A stretch of 64,000 bases of DNA from NCBI RefSeq assembly GCF_006345805.1, contig NC_042998.1, forward strand, positions 13,516,001 through 13,580,000, in the 5' to 3' direction. The notes under the pieces are model-generated. The model saw only the letters and a program-made list of their open reading frames with translations, was not told the origin of the DNA and ran no database searches. Positions 16,377 through 39,442 of the stretch are shown here, piece after piece. Source of the DNA: Octopus sinensis. Taxonomy: Eukaryota. Position numbers and translations under genes: made by a program. How positions within the stretch are numbered: position 1 is the first letter of the stretch; each line of letters begins with the position of its first letter.

Positions 16377-16482
16377 GTGTGTAGAGCCAGCTAGAGACGA
16401 AGATCTCTTGGGGCTATAAAGCTACAGTAACACCCACTCCCTAATGTGGTTAGCCATGATAAGATGGCTTCTATACTTTACA
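16377..16482 (+). repeat. ~105-bp direct repeat, left copy (host repeat of the Tx1 insertion)
   Basis: gtgt-tagagccagctagagacgaagatctcttg...gataagatggcttctatactttaca recurs with a few substitutions at 24769-24875. Confidence 0.9.
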
Positions 16483-16603
16483 TTATCGAGCGATTACTGT
16501 TTCAATCGCATTCTGAGATTTAATTATGCTTACTGTTCGTTTTTCGACATCAGTGGCAGACGCCATTAGAAAAACTTATATCTATTTGCAAAGGAGCCTT
16601 CAC

Positions 16604-16621
16604 TTTCATCGCGACCTGGTG
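16604..16621 (+). repeat. 18-bp target site duplication (copies at 22152-22169 and 24639-24656)
   Basis: TTTCATCGCGACCTGGTG occurs twice and TTTCATCGCTACCTGGTG once, exactly at the element boundaries. Confidence 0.9.
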
Positions 16622-16873
16622 TTTTTTGAATTTTTCCTCGGCGTATACCAATATTTTTCTGTTGCTGCAAATCGTTGTGTGAGTTCGTTTCCGTTTGTCT
16701 ACTCTGTCATGTTACAAGTAATATCATTGTTGAACTGTTTTTGACCCAGTAATTTTCGCCCTTCGGGGTAGAAGATTTCTGTGTGCTGTTTTGTATGAAC
16801 TCTTAACCTGTATAGGTTATTTTTGGAAAAAAAAAATTCTCTTGTCATTTGTGACAAGTTTGTGTTGTCTAAT

Positions 16874-18393
16874 ATGGAATTAGACTTAAGTTCAAAAAAA
16901 GACTTTCCCGAGATGGGAGAAAGTATAACAACTGTTAAACAAAAGGAAACACAGACAAAACCCAGTTTTTCAGACGCCGTAGGTGGCGAAGTCGAAGAAA
17001 TGGAGGTATCAATGGAAAGATTATTCAAGTTTAGATCGCTGGTGCAAAAAAGTGTGCAGAAGAAACACGATTGGTACCGCCCCCCGAAACTATACAAGCA
17101 ATAAAGGAAAAAATGGTCACCTACAGGGTGTACAATATCAAGGAAAAACGAATGACCGACGTGAAAAACGAAATGGTCGAAAAGTGTATGGCTCCAATAT
17201 GGAGTAAAGTTAGTCATGTCAACCGAGGTGCAAGAAGCGCTACAGTGGAGGCGCATTTTGAAACGGCGGAAGTAGCAAGGCAAATTCGACACAAACGTTG
17301 AAAAACGAGAGTATAATACTGCTACCCTTATATTTAGGATGCAGAACCGCAAAAGTGACCCTAGAAGATATACCAACGGGCTACGACGTGATGTGGGCGG
17401 CAACAGCGGTCATTTTTGATGTTGAATCAAAATTGACAATTTTAAGTATGAAGAGAAAAATTGCAAAACACTGGAGAGGACAGCAGCTGGAGATGATAAT
17501 CCAGGCGGAAAATGCGACGTTGGAAAGCCTACCAGACAGAGTCTTCGTGGGGGAGGGGCACTCCATACGAGTTTCGGTGGAAGGACGCAGGCCCAGATGT
17601 TTTAAGTGCGGGCAAAAGGGCCACGTTCGCTCCGTTTGCACAAAAAAAAATAATGCGGGCAACGCCCCCCCACACAAAACGCTGTGAAGAACGCAGAAAG
17701 CAGCAAAGTGGAGAAAAAAGTAACGGCTGGCGAAAACAAGGAGGAAAAAATAAACAGGTCGAACTCCAAAAAGGAGGAAGACAAGAACGAAATGCAAAAT
17801 GAGAAAGGAAAGGATGAGGAAAATAATGCAACAAAAACAAATAAACAAGAAGACATGGAATTTACGAACGTGTCCAACAAAAGGAAAAAATCCATCACCC
17901 CTGACTCCCCACCCGTATCAAAAAAAAAAACAACGCAGACGAACAAATTAAAAATATTCTCCAATCCCACCCCGGCGGTACTACACTTATAGGCCAGCAC
18001 TTTAACAAACCCCACCCCCGACTGTGTAAAGGGTTTAAACCCAACGAAAAAATTATTGCATACACCACAAAGAACGTGAGAGTAGAAACATGGGTGAAAG
18101 CAAGTACGCTGATCAGGTGCTACAAAGCGACCGAGAAGGAAGCGGAGTGGCGATATGGAAGGGTCGGCGAAGAAGGATGGAAAGACAAAACCTTACAAAG
18201 CCACGTAAAAGCCGGCTTCATTAAGGATGTCACCCAGGAGGTGACAACTGGGAAATTACCCGTTAGCCCGGCAGCCACACCAACCCAGAGCCCGGTGGCA
18301 ACGCCGGTGAAACACCCACAGCAACGGCGAGTGGGGGGGAGACAGGCAGAAGAAAGAATCTGTCAGGCTCCCTCTCGCAACCGTGAGTAAATA
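16874..18393 (+). pseudogene. Tx1 ORF1 (gag-like nucleic-acid-binding protein), split by single-base frameshifts
   Basis: Zinc knuckle RCFKCGQKGHVRSVC (CX2CX4HX4C) lies in ORF 17298-17687. The pieces are contiguous in copy 2 (ORF 22598-23938). Confidence 0.85.
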
Positions 18394-18408
18394 ATTTTCT
18401 TTTTCTCG

Positions 18409-21400
18409 ATGATTAAGTTAGGTTGTATAAATGTGCGTGGAATGGGATCGAAATGGAAACAGGCTTGTTTTCGTGACGACCTCATTTCACATAGAATCGA
18501 AGTAGCTATTGTTACCGAGTCCAAGATGAAGGGACCCCAAGCGTTCTCACCACTTCTCAATGGTTACGAGAAATTTATTTCTCCTAGCCGAGGGGGAGGT
18601 GCAGGCGTGGCAGTTCTTTTCAGGAAGAACTTGGACTTACAGGTAAGTACTGTCTTTTTGGACCCAGAAGGTAGGCTGGTTGTCCTAGATGTGACGCACG
18701 TGAGTAAGCAGTCCTTCAGGTTGGTGGCTGTCTACGCTCCTAACGGACGTGGGCAGACCGGTTTTTATCGGGAACTGGAGCACTTTCTAGTGACGTCCAA
18801 AACGGTAGTCTTGGTAGGGGATTTCAACACCATTCTCGATGCGCGGGTGATGGTGTAGGCTCGAGCGATAGGAAGGGGAATCCTGGCCTCAAGGCTCTAC
18901 TAGCGAGCTTTAATCTAGTAGACCGTTTTCGACTGGATGAGCCGAACGTTCCACAGTGGACGTGGAGTAATAACGACGGCTCACTCAGATCGTACATAGA
19001 TAGAGTATTTGTTAAGGAACGAGATAGGAATAGTGTTAGCTGTCCACAATTCTCTGTTGTGCCTTACACGGATCACAAACTTGTAACGTGTGAGGTACAT
19101 GTAGATAAATGCCATAGACAAGGTCCCGGGTACTGGAAGATGAACAAGTCTATTTTGACCTGTGAAGCTTTCCGTACCCGGATTAAGGAATTAGTACAGA
19201 GGGCATTATGTGGCACCATCATTAATAATAGATGGTGGCTCGCCCTCAAAAGAGCCATCCGTTTGGAGTCCATTAGATTTAGCAAGCAGCTAAGTTTAGG
19301 TAGGACTAGAATAGAGGGCGAATTAGTTAAGAACTTAGACGAGGCTATGGAATCTGGCTGTGCATCCGGAGTGTTGGCAGCGAGAGCGGTATTGTACCGT
19401 CACCTCAACGCCAAGCACGAGGGGTGTAGAGTCAGAGCTAAGTTACGTGCAGGAAAACGAGAAGGTATTAACGTTGCCGGATGGGCCCGTCGTGAGGAGA
19501 GTCAGAAGGGCAAAAAGTCCTGTATTATGTCCTTAACTGACGAGCAGGACCGCAAGATCTATGGACAGGAGGAGATGCAGAAGGTCCTTCACCAGCATTT
19601 CGCACGGCTGTTTGGGGGCGGTGGCCCGCTCGAGCGTGGGGAGACCTTAAAGGACTTCCTAGCTGGTGGGCCTCGGCTCTCGGCAGGTGAGGCGGAGTGC
19701 TGTGAAGGATCGATCTCTCCCGCAGAGGTAAGAGGGGCTATGGCCGAGTGCGCCGGGGAAAAGTCACCGGGATTGGATGGTCTACCCTATGAATTTTATT
19801 GTTGTATGCCGGACTTGTTCGGGGACATACTGGCAGGCGTCTATGCAAACTGGCAGCAGAATGGGAGGATTCCCAGCTCTGTGAGTCGGGGAGTTGTGAC
19901 GCTGGTCCAGAAAGACCCGAGCAAGGGGGACAGTATTAGTAATTACAGGCCCATAACTCTACTTAATGTAGAGTTTAAGATTTTGGCCAAGGTGTTAGCA
20001 AAAAGGTTGACGGCTGTCGTGAAGAAACTTGTCGGGAAGGCACAGACATGTGCAATCCCAGGCAGGTCGATCCAGGATAATCTTCACCTTCTCCGCTACA
20101 CTATAGATAGGGTCGGGAAATTAGACGGCAAGGAGGGGCATTGGTCCATTTAGACCAAAGTAAAGCGTTTGATAGGGTGGACCATCGGTACTTGGCGGCG
20201 GTTCTCGAAGCGGCTGGGCTGGGCCCTGGCTTCTGCGGGTGGATCTCAGCTATGTACAGCGGCATCAAGTCCACAGTCCAGATAAACGGTTACCTAACGG
20301 AGCCGTTTTCGATCAAGCGTTCAGTTCGACAAGGGTGCCCCTTGTCCCCGCCTGTATGTTTTGGCTCTTGAGCCATTGCTGCGGAAGCTGGAGAAGTTGG
20401 GAGGCAACCCTAATGAAATCGGATGCGGTAAGTCTGTTTCTGCCTATGCGGATGACGTCACCCTCATCGTGTCCAACGGAACACAGCTACCTCGGGTAGT
20501 AGGTGCTCTCCATAGATACGAAGCGGTGGCAGGGGCAAAAGTTAACAGGGACAAGTCCATCGGTTTGCGCCTCGGCACCTGGAGGAACAAGCAGATACCG
20601 TCCAGTGTGTTGGACACTGGACGGATGGTCCTGTTAAATTGCTCGGAGTATGGTTTGGTCCAGACTCCCAGACGAGAAGGAGAAGAATTGGAGCGAGGTA
20701 ACGAGCAAGGTGGATGCCATAGTACGGAAGTGGTCCGGAAGGCATCTTTCCTTGAAAGGGAGGGCGGAGGTGGCACAGATGTTTATAGCCTCTGTCGTCA
20801 CCTACCGCCTGACCGTCGTGCCTTGCCCCGATTCGTGGTTAAACAAGTTGGAACGACTTCTTTTCCGCTTTTTGTGGAAAGGAGGAAAGCCACTTGTGAG
20901 ACGCTCCGTGTGTTGCCAGGAACCGCTAAAGGGTGGACTGGGGATGCCTTGGCTAATGATGCGCAAGCATGCGTTGAGGCTGAGACACCTCTGGTGTTAC
21001 CTGGAGGATGATAAGGTGTGGAGTTCGCTGGCAGAGGAATTCTTCCCGCGACCGGCCTCTATGGAGGGATTTACACCCGGTCTCATTAAGGACGTAAACT
21101 GACTTCATGGCAGAAGGAGTGCCGACAGGCACTCTGGCTGATCCACAAGATGGGTAAGGCCGGCAGCGGGAATACCACCTCGGTGTTCTATAAAGGGCTG
21201 GTAGGAGGAAAAAATGACGACGTCCTAGGAAGGGCTCTGGGGTTCGATGAGGATCAACTCTCCAACCTGTTTAAGAAGACTTTCAGGCCGGGGTATTTGG
21301 ATAATTACCAAAAATCCCTGACCTGGCAGTGCTATAGGAATGCATTACCTGTTCGCGAGAAGTTATCCAGGCACGGAATGTCAGTGCCACCGACGTGTCC

Positions 21401-21800
21401 AAGATGTGGGTTGGACGATGATGAAACCGTTCAACACGCTTTTGTACAATGTCGGGAGCTGTCAGGCTTGATAAGTTACGTGGAACACGTGTTGTCGCAT
21501 CTGGGACGAGTACAGCTGTCGGCTGGATCTATGATTAAGATGATACCGCCAACTGGACTCTCAAAGGAAGGTAAGGCTTGTTTTTACTGTACGGTGGCAG
21601 TATTGAAAGAGTGTGTATGGAGAACTAGAGTGGAAGGTCTAGTGAAAGGGTCCTTTATCTCTGGCCCCGGTTTGTTAAAATACTTCGGATATCATCTGAA
21701 GAGCAAGATGGGGTTGGAGAAGAGGAGCCTGCCACAGAAAGAGTATATGGAACGTTGGAAGGATGTGATGAGAAAGGTGGGTGAGAGTAGCCCAGCTTAA
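18409..21800 (+). pseudogene. Tx1 ORF2: apurinic-type endonuclease + reverse transcriptase + C-terminal zinc finger, frameshifted
   Basis: APE motifs: INVRG, VYAP, GDFN, IDRVF, TDHK, GYWKMN. RT motifs: SPGLDGL, NYRPITLLNVEFKILAK, LDQSKAFDRVDH, RQGCPLSP, YADD. C-terminal CPRC...ETVQHAFVQC. Confidence 0.93.
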
Positions 21801-22169
21801 TCATCGAGGAGGAAAGGAGGGATCGGCTGCTGGGATTTATAGGCTGCCGGGTTCAAAATTGAAACTGGTACCTCCCATTACCTTCACTGTACATAACTGT
21901 TTAAAATAAAGAATTAATAATAAAAAAACAAATGAAAAGAAAACATACGCACTAAAAGTTCTCGTGATAAAGGCAAAAGTAAGCCAAGGTTTCGTTTCAA
22001 GGCAAAGTAAGCCAAGTTTTCGTTCAAGTGACATAAAATTTTAATTTTGTAATTTTTTAAATTTCATTCGAACTCGCATAGCATTTTTGTAACTGTTTTG
22101 TCCTGTAATGTATCCATTCTATGTTAGATCTATTGATCATAATAAAGAAAATTTCATCGCGACCTGGTG

Positions 22170-24638
22170 TTTTTTTGAATTTTTCCTCGGCGTATACCAA
22201 TTTTTCTGTTGCTGCAAACGTGTGTGAGTTCGTTTCCGTTGTCTACTCTGTCGTGTTACAAGTAATATCATTGTTGAACTGTTTTTGACCCAGTAATTTT
22301 CGCCCTTCGGGGTAGAAAATTTCTGTGTGTGCTTTTTGTGTGAACTCTTAACCTGTATAGGTTAATTTTGGAAAAAAAAAAATTCTCTGTCATGTGTGAC
22401 AAGTTTGTGTTGTCTAATATGGAATTAGACTTAAGTTCAAAAAAAAAGACTTTCCGAGAGGGAGAAAGTATAACAACTGTTAAACAAAAGGAAACACAGA
22501 CAAAACCCAGTTTTTCAGACGCCGTAGGTGGCGCGAGTCGAAGAAATGGAGGTATCAATGGAAAGATTATTCAAGTTTAGATCGCTGGTGCAAAAAAGTG
22601 GCAGAAAAGCGAAGAAACACGATTGGTACCGCCCCCCGAAACTATACAAGCAATAAAGGAAAAAATGGTCACCTACAGGGGTACAATATCAAGGAAAAAC
22701 GAATGACCGACGTGAAAAAAGAAATGGTCGAAAAGTGTATGGCTCCAATATGGAGTAAAGTTAGTCATGTCAACCGAGGTGCAAGAAGCGCTACAGTGGA
22801 GGCGCATTTTGAAACGGCGGAAGTAGCAAGGCAAATTTCGACACAAACGTTGAAAAACGAGAGTATAATACTGCTACCCTTATATTTAGGATGCAGAACC
22901 GCAAAAGTGACCCTAGAAGATATACCAACGGGCTACGACGTGATGTGGGCGGCAACAGCGGTCATTTTTGATGTTGAATCAAAATTGACAATTTTAAGTA
23001 TGAAGAGAAAAATTGCAAAACACTGGAGAGGCCAGCAGCTGGAGATGATAATCCAGGCGGAAAATGCGACGTTGGAAAGCCTACCAGACAGAGTCTTCGT
23101 GGGGGAGGGGCACTCCATACGAGTTTCGGTGGAAGGACGCAGGCCCAGATGTTTTAAGTGCGGGCAAAAGGGCCACGTTCGCTCCGTTTGCACAAAAAAA
23201 AATAATGCGGGCAACGCCCCCCCACAAAACGCTGTGAGGAACGCAGAAAGCAGCAAAGTGGAGAAAAAAGTAACGGCTGGCGAAAACAAGGAGGAAAAAA
23301 TAAACAGGTCGAACTCCAAAAAGGAGGAAGACAAGAACGAAATGCAAAATGAGAAAGGAAAGGATGAGGAAAATAATGCAACAAAAACAAATAAACAAGA
23401 AGACATGGAATTTACGAACGTGTCCAACAAAAGGAAAAAATCCATCACCCCTGACTCCCCACCCGTATCAAAAAAAAAAAACAACGCAGACGAACAAATT
23501 AAAAATATTCTCCAATCCCCCGGCGGTACTACACTTATAGGCCAGCACTTTAACAAACCCCACCCCCCAACTGTAAAAGGTTTTAAACCCAACGAAAAAA
23601 TTATTGCATACACCACAAAGAACGTGAGAGTAGAAACATGGGTGAAAGCAAGTACGCTGATCAGGTGCTACAAAGCGACCGAGAAGGAAGCGGAGTGGCG
23701 ATATGGAAGGGTAGGCGAAGAAGGATGGAAAGACAAAACCTTACAAAGCCACGTAAAAGCCGGCTTCATTAAGGATGTCACCCAGGAGGTGACAACTGGG
23801 AAATTACCCGTTAGCCGGCAGCCACACCAACCAGAGCCCGGTGGCAACGCCGGTGAAACACCCAGCAGCAACGGCGAGTGGGGGGGAGACAGGCAGAAAG
23901 AATCTGTCAGGCTCCCTCTCGCAACCGTGAGTAAATAATTTTCTTTTTCTCGATGATTAGTTAGGTTGTATAAATGTGCGTGGAATGGGATCGAAATGGA
24001 AACAGGCTTGTTTTCGTGACGACCTCATTTCACATAGAATCGAAGTAGCTATTGTTACCGAGTCCAAGATGAAGGGACCCCAAGCGTTCTCACCACTTCT
24101 CAATGGTTACGAGAATTTATTTCTCCTAGCCGAGGGGGAGGTGCAGGCGTGGCAGTTCTTTTCAGGAAGAACTTGGACTTACAGGTAAGTACTGTCTTTT
24201 TGGACCCAGAAGGTAGGCTGGTTGTCCTAGATGTGACGCACGTGAGTAAGCAGTCCTTCAGGTTGGTGGCTGTCTACGCTCCTAACGGACGTGGGCAGAC
24301 CGGTTTTTATCGGGAACTGGAGCACTTTCTAGTGACGTCCAAAACGGTAGTCTTGGTAGGGGATTTCAACACCATTCTCGATGCGCGGGTGGATGGTGTA
24401 GGCTCGAGCGATAGGAAGGGGAATCCTGGCCTCAAGGCTCTACTAGCGAGCTTTAATCTAGTAGACCGTTTTCGACTGGATGAGCCGAACGTTCCACAGT
24501 GGACGTGGAGTAATAACGACGGCTCACTCAGATCGTACATAGATAGAGTATTTGTTAAGGAACGAGATAGGAATAGTGTTAGCTGTCCACAATTCTCTGT
24601 TGTGCCTTACACGGATCTATTAATCATAATAAAGAAAA
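22170..24638 (+). mobile_element. Second tandem Tx1 copy with ~3.05-kb internal deletion (no RT)
   Basis: Near-identical to 16622-19074. At GATC (24614-24617) it joins directly to the last ~25 nt of the element (tattaatcataataaagaaaa). Confidence 0.9.
22598..23938 (+). CDS. Tx1 ORF1 of copy 2 (446-aa frame; true start probably near 22419 with upstream frameshifts)
   Basis: Contains the CCHC knuckle, a K/E/N-rich linker and a C-terminal region ending ATVSK* just before ORF2. Confidence 0.75.
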   Translation: MAEKRRNTIGTAPRNYTSNKGKNGHLQGYNIKEKRMTDVKKEMVEKCMAPIWSKVSHVNRGARSATVEAHFETAEVARQISTQTLKNESIILLPLYLGCRTAKVTLEDIPTGYDVMWAATAVIFDVESKLTILSMKRKIAKHWRGQQLEMIIQAENATLESLPDRVFVGEGHSIRVSVEGRRPRCFKCGQKGHVRSVCTKKNNAGNAPPQNAVRNAESSKVEKKVTAGENKEEKINRSNSKKEEDKNEMQNEKGKDEENNATKTNKQEDMEFTNVSNKRKKSITPDSPPVSKKKNNADEQIKNILQSPGGTTLIGQHFNKPHPPTVKGFKPNEKIIAYTTKNVRVETWVKASTLIRCYKATEKEAEWRYGRVGEEGWKDKTLQSHVKAGFIKDVTQEVTTGKLPVSRQPHQPEPGGNAGETPSSNGEWGGDRQKESVRLPLATVSK

Positions 24639-24661
24639 TTTCATCGCTACCTGGTGGTTGC

Positions 24662-24704
24662 CGCTCGTTGACGAGGGACAAACATCCCGATACTAGTTCG
24701 AGCG
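24662..24704 (+). ncRNA. Type I minimal hammerhead-ribozyme-like motif (degenerate core)
   Basis: Reads CGCTCG-TTGACGA-GGGA caaaca TCCC-GATA-CTAG-TT-CGAGCG, giving a 6-bp helix I, 4-bp helix II and palindromic helix III. It deviates from the consensus at C3 (U) and GAAA (GAUA). Confidence 0.65.
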
Positions 24705-24768
24705 TATCACTCAGGTTTGCGAGGAAGGGATGGCCCCCCTTTGCAAATACTCCAAAGACACAGATATT

Positions 24769-24875
24769 GTGTTTAGAGCCAGCTAGAGACGAAGATCTCT
24801 TGAGGCTATAAAGCTACAGTAACAACCCCCTCCCCAATGTGGTTAGCCACGATAAGATGGCTTCTATACTTTACA
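24769..24875 (+). repeat. ~105-bp direct repeat, right copy
   Basis: Matches 16377-16482. Confidence 0.9.
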
Positions 24876-25257
24876 ATAATTTATTATAAGCTATGTATTA
24901 TCCAAGACAGTATTTCATATAAAGTGGGATTAAAGTCCAGTGTTTTTCCGTAAACAATTTTGCAAATTCAGAATATCTTTTTAAAATGGTGAAGTACGGG
25001 ATTTCGAGTAATATCACATGTGGGTGTTCCTTTATATACTCTCTTGCGTATATACATCAATATATGAATACTTTTATCTGAGGAAAAATTGACACGTAAA
25101 AAAGGGAAATTTCTAAGAGTGTATGTTTCTTTTAGCAGCGGTAAAAGAATCATGTATTAGTGTTCGATGTTGAGGGCAAAAATTATATATTTGAGGAGTC
25201 ATAGGGAATCAGAAATGAGATGCTTTTATGCTAACGTCAGCGATTTTGTAGTGATAG

Positions 25258-37568: not shown

Positions 37569-37581
37569 CTAAATGTGTAAC

Positions 37582-37685
37582 ACTTACAGCACCTAGGTTT
37601 CCCAAGCGGTCAGCCATCTAAGTACTAAGTAGTCTCGACGTTGCTTAACTTCGGTGATCGGACGAGAACCGGTGCTTTCAACGTG
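37582..37685 (-). pseudogene. 5S rRNA pseudogene (5'-truncated/diverged)
   Basis: Minus strand reads cacgttgaaagcaccggttctcgtccgatcaccgaagttaagcaacgtcgagactacttagtacttagatggctgaccgcttgggaaacctaggtgctgtaag. This matches metazoan 5S rRNA from about nt 15 to the 3' end. Confidence 0.9.
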
Positions 37686-39442
37686 AAGGTGTGGAAATCA
37701 TATATACTAGCTGGGAAATATCATGATTAATTATAAAAGTTATTGAAAACAAAATGTAGCATAAGCACAGGAATTAAGGATACGATAGAATAAGTGCTAT
37801 AGCTACCGCTTTATTCAATAACGCCTCTGGCATTTATGCACTGTATAACTTTTCAAATTTTATCTACGGTTCTCTAATCTGGACTATCCTCTCCTACATC
37901 TTGGTGAGCAAATGTCATCGGCACTTCTCTAAAGTTGTTCTTTTTTTTATTATTTTGCTGTAATTAACCTTAGTGTTCTAGGTTGGAGTGTTGACTCGAC
38001 ACAAACATCGTTTCACCTTTTACCAGCGATAGTCCAGATTCGTTCTATCCCTATCGTTTAACCTGCTCAGCATGGAGACCACACTAGGAACCTGCGCTCC
38101 GTTGGTGTAGCTTCGCAGAGCCATTGAACCACAAATGCAACGACAACGTTACAAGAACTATATCTAGTGGTAGAAATATTATAGGAATACGTCGTTCCAG
38201 TGTCATAATAGGATAATAATTTTTGTTATGTTTACAGATGTAGGAGAATTAAAGTCATCGTTGGCCTTGAATTGCTCATTCATTATTGCGATCTCATTTT
38301 TGATCAAAAGATATTAAACGTATATGTGCATACTTTTCATTTTTGCTACAAGGGTTAACTAATATTGTCATATTAATTCATTCTGTAGAGTTAAATAAAA
38401 TGAGTTTTAAAGTAACTGAGAACATATCCGAGATCTTTGAGCGTTTTCTCTATAATAGGAGACACATTCTTTACCACATATTACATTCAATATTAAATTG
38501 CTAGAAAAATATATTAATATCTCATTGACTTGATATTTGCAAAGAAATGGATTTCAATTTCATTTTTTCATTTTTCTCTTCGCTATGAAAAATAAACTCA
38601 GCTACAGAAACAATTCACAAGGAGATAGATAATTGCTGTTTCGTATGAGAAATATAAGTGAATAGTGCACTGCGTATTCAAATAGAAATAAATAAGAAAT
38701 ATTATACGGTAGTCGGCATTACACCACATGATATATTTCCCTGCAGCCGTTCATTGTTTATTGGAATCTGTAACGCTAAACCACACACGATTTAGTTGCT
38801 ATATTCAATAAGAAAAATATGAATAATCAAATGTAAACAATGGTATTATGTTATTATTTGCAAATACGATTAGGTAAAGTGCATTATAACTGTTTCCTAT
38901 TAAAAATTTTCGATTCCGCTACATGTCATGCAATTATTGAACAGCACGCAAAAGCATCATATCTTTGATGACAAAAATATACAGAAAATTATTAAGAATA
39001 GATACACGCGCATCGTTCATGAACATGAACATATACTTGGAATTAAAGCTATCATCCGAAATGACATTAATATCCATAAATGTACAGCGCAGCTGCGGAT
39101 TTATAACTGATAACGTTTCTAAGTAACAACCCTTTTCGAATGGCAGGATGTAAAACATTACATATGCGTTCGTAATTTAATAATTACATTTTTAAAACAT
39201 TACATTATAGAAAAAACCGGTTCCAGAGCATTCGGCTTATATTTGCTGTATGCCATTCATCAACATTGGAGGGAATTTACTAGAGCGAAACCCATTTTAT
39301 TCAAGTAGTCGTCGAGAATGGTCAGGTCGAGCTGATCATATGAGAAAATAATGTTATCCTAAGTACTGAGAATTGTGTTCACAACACTCCTGCATCGGCA
39401 AGAGAGCGGAACGCAGAGGAAATCAGTGCACCGAAAACTTCC

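Follow-up and report, generated by a model that had tools for sequence, protein, structure and literature searches.

R2 elements reside in the 28S rDNA, depend on the host unit for their transcription and carry host sequence on the 5' end of their RNA, which templates the 5' junction; they possess a restriction-like endonuclease and their own hepatitis delta virus (HDV)-like ribozyme. Among long interspersed nuclear elements (LINEs), Keno (Tx1 clade) and Utopia insert site-specifically into multicopy small-RNA units, the U2 small nuclear RNA (snRNA) genes, and also in tandem at their site (PMC4494074 and PMC4640811, available sections), and as of 2015 the accessible part of PMC4640811 names only Keno, Utopia, Dada-U1 and Dada-U6 as families targeting snRNA genes. 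Tx1 elements also settle on non-autonomous transposons, as do Tx1L in Tx1D and the crocodilian Tx1-Mar, an element with U1/U2 heads, in Mariner-N4_AMi (PMC4494074). Retrozymes without long terminal repeats (LTRs) and newt satellite 2 are non-coding units of about 350 bp with a type I hammerhead ribozyme, tandem or dispersed and related to Penelope elements (PMC7229834, bioRxiv 10.64898/2026.07.22.740005 and PMC2220036, in the sections available). L1-Tx1 families of octopus have been counted, the accessible text giving no targets (PMC13282606). Here we describe a LINE family of Octopus sinensis that inserts site-specifically at one fixed spot of a 357-bp hammerhead repeat, whose sequence features fit a non-LTR retrozyme. 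Two of its copies lie in a window of 64,000 nucleotides (contig NC_042998.1, positions 13,516,001 to 13,580,000, forward strand; coordinates below refer to this window). The fixed site is likely the start of snRNA-type RNA polymerase II (Pol II) transcription in the retrozyme, and the LINE is likely transcribed from the promoter captured there.

A 17-nt pattern from the 3' end of the element matched the genome 50 times; every match was read and three were not elements, which left 47 ends. Thirty-six of these lie in the hammerhead unit (22 in subfamily A and 14, at the identical position, in the diverged subfamily B), ten are stacked on a LINE at the target motif (five on the same family, five on another LINE family that follows the same motif), one lies in a complete U2 gene, at +1, and none is elsewhere. 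By Kojima's definition of target specificity, one flank type in >20% of copies, the figures are 36/47 directly plus the 10 stacked ends. Five further ends without the exact pattern were read as well: four lie in units and the fifth (L056) has a broken 3' flank and the unit on its 5' side. The 18-nt target duplication spans −4 to +14, and the cut is staggered accordingly at −4/+14. The first-pass annotation had proposed a site-specific LINE on a ribozyme-bearing repeat, to be abandoned if other copies sat in unrelated flanks, if the unit was single-copy or if its consensus lacked a hammerhead. The 47 ends bear the proposal out, 207 exact empty junctions exist genome-wide (none for a control pattern), and the hammerhead structure covaries across subfamilies.

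In the window, all on the forward strand, the upstream, promoter-bearing side of the 357-bp unit (16377–16603) matches many loci at 96–98% identity, including tandem empty arrays such as L154. It contains a PSE (proximal sequence element)-like motif, ATCAGTGGCA (16549–16558), 59 nt before the predicted +1, and an AT-rich element at about −31 (16577–16584), PSEB/TATA-like as read from the sequence and with similar AT-rich stretches in U1/U2 promoters; the promoter role of both is putative. The 5' target copy (16604–16621) comprises 4 nt of flank and a 14-nt head from the predicted +1 (16608). A full-length, frameshifted LINE follows (16622–22151, ending AATAAAGAAAA), with open reading frame (ORF) 1 at about 16874–18390 and ORF2 at about 18409–21800. 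A second target copy (22152–22169), a tandem junction of a kind found at four other places, separates it from LINE copy 2 (22170–24638), which retains ORF1 and the endonuclease and has lost about 3 kb internally at a GATC microhomology joint (24614–24617) to the element's 3' tip, its last ~22 nt being present. Both LINEs are 97.8% identical over the 2490 nt compared. The third target copy (24639–24656), the original site, differs at one base, and the 5' head mismatches it at a polymorphic G/T site. Downstream are a predicted type I minimal hammerhead with extended stem I (24654–24710; core 24662–24704; predicted cut after 24698), whose distal stem I includes the final 3 nt of the target, the remainder of the unit with a hairpin (24711–24768; a fold of the window sequence, conserved in copies) and a terminal repeat of the unit start (24769–24878), a partial tandem end of Penelope type. 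With both LINEs removed, 16377–16621 and 24657–24768 join to 357 nt, in agreement with the 356–357-nt spacing of empty tandems elsewhere (C2:129384392/749; C8:14886112-14887203), as the first-pass annotation had it; the terminal repeat, put there at ~105 bp, measures 110 nt with 93.6% identity to 16377–16485. Unit copies elsewhere stop at this terminal-repeat end or ~45 nt beyond. Apart from these features, the window holds a 5S rRNA-like sequence on the reverse strand (37581–37698, Rfam 71.5 bits), possibly the 5S-derived head of a short interspersed element.

The LINEs belong to the L1 group of non-LTR retrotransposons, since ORF1 carries a CCHC motif and ORF2 endonuclease, reverse transcriptase (RT) and zinc-binding domains, and since human L1 ORF2p is the top PDB match and nearest solved structure (searched with a sister copy). 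The Pfam matches of copy 1 were zf-CCHC (just below the cut-off), PF03372 (the apurinic/apyrimidinic endonuclease, APE), PF00078 (RT) and PF13966 (zf-RVT). From domain layout and site specificity, the family is probably of the Tx1 clade, to which we assume it belongs. The best named protein relatives come from Argonauta and a cuttlefish, and the element has an AATAAA of its own. ORF2 was broken by indels in every full-length copy checked (L110, L096, L105, L107 and the window), despite 94–99% identity; in part these indels may be assembly errors.

The host unit is short, non-coding and bears one type I hammerhead; it occurs in tandem arrays (L154, L155) as well as dispersed, with 1231 first-look genome candidates, of which 40 were scored. 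Some candidates are a fragment captured by a Helitron. A common repeat ending in a hairpin and CTAGT, presumably non-autonomous and Helitron-like, has a 69-nt segment in common with the retrozyme unit at 80–87% identity (L134:254-319, L129:2319-2382, L137, L139, L142, L152, L153), which suggests capture of a retrozyme piece by that repeat; in L134 it stands in tandem 392-nt copies. For the ribozyme, 26 hand-picked copies from subfamilies 70–97% alike were aligned to a type I structure drawn by hand: 92% of cells are paired and 11 of 20 pairs show two-sided change, against none of 500 shuffles and 20–52% pairing in slid alignments. Core pair 3–8 is C3–G8 in 11 copies, U3–A8 in six and U–G in eight. 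The covariation thus upholds a predicted type I hammerhead across subfamilies. The motif placed 5 nt after the target by the first-pass annotation holds in position and by covariation; the window copy itself has a mutated core, in which GATA replaces the catalytic GAAA (T at 24691), and is not called by Rfam. The predicted cleavage site itself, directly downstream of the GUC triplet, holds an insertion of a distant LINE family at two further loci, which look like one duplicated segment (L102, L103).

The statement that the target does not resemble U1 or U2 proved wrong, and with it a probable mechanism had escaped the first-pass annotation, namely insertion at an snRNA-type start site. Aligned from its ATCG, the target agrees with U1 at nine of the 12 initial nucleotides, and with U2 likewise at nine. 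ATCAGT lies at −56 to −59 in 14 of 18 U1 loci (of the rest, two show ATCATC, one carries a LINE and one lacks the motif) and at −57 to −61 in all unfilled U2 promoters listed, strictly in 28 of 30 loci; in the tally of 29/30 the exception is the LINE-filled gene, whose promoter is supplied by L091, and L147 is not listed. The host repeat has ATCAGT at −59 relative to the same A, and its diverged subfamilies retain the motif. A PSE about 55–60 nt upstream of +1 defines snRNA-type Pol II promoters, and the repeat has a putative one in both motif and spacing; by hand estimate, the chance of the motif falling within a span of seven positions at a fixed site is ~0.002. For newt satellite 2, itself a hammerhead repeat, transcription from an snRNA-type Pol II promoter has been reported (Coats 1994, cited in PMC2220036, accessible part), and our data suggest that such promoters drive mollusc retrozymes too. 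ATCAGT was not seen in U6 promoters, the top U6 matches being mostly promoter-less copies or members of a divergent cluster, and the T6 run at the element start would argue against Pol III read-through. Loci L229-L239 (C1:141.92-141.95 Mb) form a tandem array of divergent U6-like genes spaced 1.1–2.5 kb apart. Near another U2 gene, the 5' part of a related LINE starts ~50 nt past the gene's 3' end (L138:1695-1850).

Sister families extend the picture. A related 3'-end pattern gave 159 matches, and 40 ends were read from the first 100 listed. Twelve belong to family C in a different hammerhead repeat (repeat C), 12 to family B and one to a relative in A/B units, one of these stacked on another LINE, and five to family D in a third hammerhead repeat (repeat D). 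Repeat C, with 361-bp units, 1121 exact sites and a hammerhead with a U3–A8 core (L300-L306), is a second retrozyme family with a site-specific LINE family of its own, and carries AGTGGATGTA 54 nt ahead of the head. This 10-mer, a pattern picked after the data were seen, occurs among 315 loci in 7/7 repeat-C loci, in 11 U2 promoters (−54 to −57, that of L091 counted), in L114, L169 and L217, and nowhere else. A family-C tail also lies at +1 of one of the 18 U1 loci (L257), where neither the 5' end nor the endonuclease of the copy was found at the expected distance. In repeat D (L307-L309), whose hammerhead was fully read in one locus, L307, the LINE target includes ATCAGT, and the ribozyme is closely followed by a T5 run. 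Further sister families (L262, L263, L264, L266, L270, L272, L278, L283, L287, L289; L168) occupy sites beginning ATAACTT or ATACC, one of them at a (TC)n microsatellite.

The 5' junctions suggest where the copied RNA began. Element 5' ends bear the first 14–17 nt of the host. At the U2 insertion the order is U2 promoter, U2 +1 to +14, the 14-nt retrozyme head and the element, which implies that ATCG of the retrozyme was the start of the copied RNA. Hand scoring of both-ended insertions showed a 5' head unlike the insertion's own 3' target in 11 of 34 cases; in five of these, the window among them, the difference lies at one and the same G/T polymorphism. The scoring omitted L086/L056 for a broken flank, L103 as a duplicate, L117 for an altered junction, and also L025, L017 and stacks read without their outer end.

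The fixed site, the −4/+14 duplication, the stacking, the use by multiple families, the hits at +1 of U2 and U1, the PSE-like spacing and the heads beginning at the host's first nucleotide together point to promoter capture. In the scheme that we propose, the APE endonuclease would recognise a short, degenerate sequence resembling U1/U2 and nick near +1, probably aided by open promoter chromatin or by RNA-DNA pairing. Target-primed reverse transcription would then copy the RNA together with its 14-nt host-derived head, which would replace, or add to, the 5' duplication. As the insertion point falls in the distal arm of stem I, the downstream target copy would restore an intact hammerhead behind the element, and read-through RNA would be cleaved ~60 nt past the element end, any use of such cleavage being speculative. 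The retrozyme, if spread by Penelope-like elements, would offer a renewable pool of promoter-bearing sites.

Several observations weigh against this interpretation. By chance alone, roughly one ATCAGT-N50-56-ATCG is expected in every 64 kb, and a second ATCAGTG occurs once on the opposite strand of the host unit; the argument therefore rests on position and not on the motif by itself. Repeat D has a TATA-like stretch and no PSE-like motif at −57, so the promoter-motif rule is not universal; ten of the 40 sister ends lie in non-hammerhead sites; and one family-C copy, headed by U1 +1 to +17, occupies a PSE-less ATACTT site with a U2 gene on either side (L128/L144). No sequencing run on record as RNA contains the unit, and the retrozyme start is predicted from sequence; among contigs of four runs guessed to be RNA, the joint of the empty site occurs in three runs and that of the tandem in one, and a single contig spans the 3' junction, all of which is uninformative on expression. 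Template jumping to the 5' ends of small RNAs, proposed for the U1/U2-headed crocodilian elements (PMC4494074), can by analogy be an alternative source of such heads on Tx1 elements; even then, the heads would identify ATCG as the 5' end of an RNA. Concerning the hammerhead itself, neither Rfam threshold yields one in the window, and the only hit is a sub-threshold HH9 in another copy (L031, 31.2 bits against a cut-off of 52, E 4e-4). Minimum-energy folds of two A/B single units are no better than shuffles (z 1.33 and −0.29; repeat C −2.87, repeat D −1.44), but weak single-copy folds are expected of minimal hammerheads, which is why covariation was used. Of the five 5'-truncated LINE copies read, four (L097, L100, L111, L120) are missing the upstream side of the unit and adjoin unrelated DNA.

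How the site is found is a separate question, compatible with promoter capture. Tethering guides Ty3 and the TRE elements of Dictyostelium to Pol III genes. In the octopus, SNAPc or the pre-initiation complex could similarly bring ORF1p/ORF2p to snRNA-type promoters with only a weak sequence preference, a possibility that we regard as real though rather doubtful. It would account for the U1-headed family-C copy, which has 98% endonuclease DNA identity to a repeat-C copy headed by 17 nt of unrelated sequence, for the equal spacing of both targets to PSE-like motifs and for the off-target position of the former copy between U2 genes. The missing PSE of repeat D argues against it, as does the low rate of hits in snRNA genes (1/30 U2 and 1/18 U1 loci), and several endonuclease residues distinguish the two branches of family C, differences that could alter specificity. 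We advance only tentatively the wider view that this LINE radiation finds its targets by promoter position, through tethering to the snRNA-type initiation complex, and not by sequence. It would thereby hop among U1, U2 and at least two unrelated hammerhead retrozymes, borrowing the host's promoter at its 5' side and its ribozyme at the 3' side, as a hyperparasite of Penelope-dependent retrozymes.

Less likely, the endonuclease purely reads a U1/U2-like 12–18-mer present by chance in the retrozyme, which would serve as a safe harbour for an element with its own promoter, the PSE likeness being incidental. The pattern AT(C/A)..N..YYGG common to family A/B targets and U1/U2 starts is in keeping with this, as are the insertion at the off-promoter ATACTT site and the general crediting of Tx1 specificity to the endonuclease (PMC4494074, available sections). 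Yet the loose motif common to the targets occurs 1704 times in the genome (control 1424), with many listed matches outside the repeat, even inside the LINE itself, and none of the 47 ends is there, so that the minimal motif fails to explain the specificity. Moreover, family C uses two sequence-unrelated targets at equal promoter spacing, and the U1 heads start precisely at +1.

The relation of the host repeat to Penelope-like elements bears on two further alternatives. Unit copies are arranged as partial tandems, in many cases with inversion of a 5' piece, and stop at two preferred points in AT-rich DNA, a pattern known for Penelope-like elements (PMC8557442, accessible part), and intact RT+GIY-YIG ORFs (762–883 aa) exist in the genome; both would suit a pseudo-LTR of an autonomous Penelope-like element in place of a free, non-autonomous retrozyme. 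We consider this improbable, since no coding flank is common to 90 loci or to 20 further regions picked at empty sites, and the only unit-like matches in 46 GIY-YIG loci (L200, L210) are separate insertions in AT microsatellites; among the loci examined, in a search that was not exhaustive, no RT-GIY-YIG ORF was bounded by the host unit. Young Penelope-like elements with intact 775–883 aa RT+GIY-YIG ORFs were noted in L204, L205, L206, L208, L209 and L210, several with a preceding ORF of 280–479 aa of no known family, then ~92-nt tandem repeats. Most improbable is that one or a few insertions were amplified as passive cargo in composite retrozyme-LINE RNAs by the Penelope-like machinery, as the truncated copies beside unrelated DNA, some of them ending in Penelope-type fashion, might suggest: later deletion accounts for these as well, the truncated copy L115 plainly duplicated its target inside an array, one LINE family occurs in U2 as well as in separate repeat subfamilies, such sites are shared by four families, and tandem stacks and head/target mismatches are present. 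The truncated copies may thus have moved as Penelope-mobilised cargo or been trimmed by deletion, and counts may be inflated thereby, but cargo spread, which may add copies, cannot produce the pattern, because several families, subfamilies and snRNA genes are hit at one position.

Promoter capture at the retrozyme start would extend the target list of site-specific LINEs to ribozyme-bearing retrozymes and to the +1 of snRNA-type transcription units, and would set up a parasite chain in three tiers, from Penelope-like element through retrozyme to LINE, in which the element heads naturally chart where retrozymes start. Almost identical endonucleases whose targets are unrelated would offer a way into specificity switching of APE-type LINEs, by sequence reading or by tethering, of relevance to site-specific gene insertion tools. 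Compared with R2, the octopus LINE has an APE endonuclease, a putative Pol II-type host promoter and a host-encoded hammerhead downstream. Full-text literature searches, with Repbase Reports and supplements outside their scope, found no LINE targeting retrozymes or pseudo-LTR hammerheads; the satellite-targeting Tx1 families in Fig. 3 of PMC4494074 could be unrecognised retrozyme cases. Non-LTR retrozymes and satellite 2 differ from the octopus repeat, whose self-cleavage is predicted, in that no site-specific LINE parasite was found described for them in the literature searched (PMC7229834, bioRxiv 10.64898/2026.07.22.740005 and PMC2220036, as far as accessible). The hosts of Tx1L and Tx1-Mar are DNA transposons (PMC4494074), whereas the octopus host is a ribozyme retroelement with an snRNA-type promoter motif, whose start is matched by the heads. 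Keno and Utopia cut within U2, with a downstream flank from nt 39 (PMC4494074, PMC4640811, available sections), whereas the octopus family cuts at −4/+14 of the start and has a retrozyme as its main host, U2 and U1 being rare targets.

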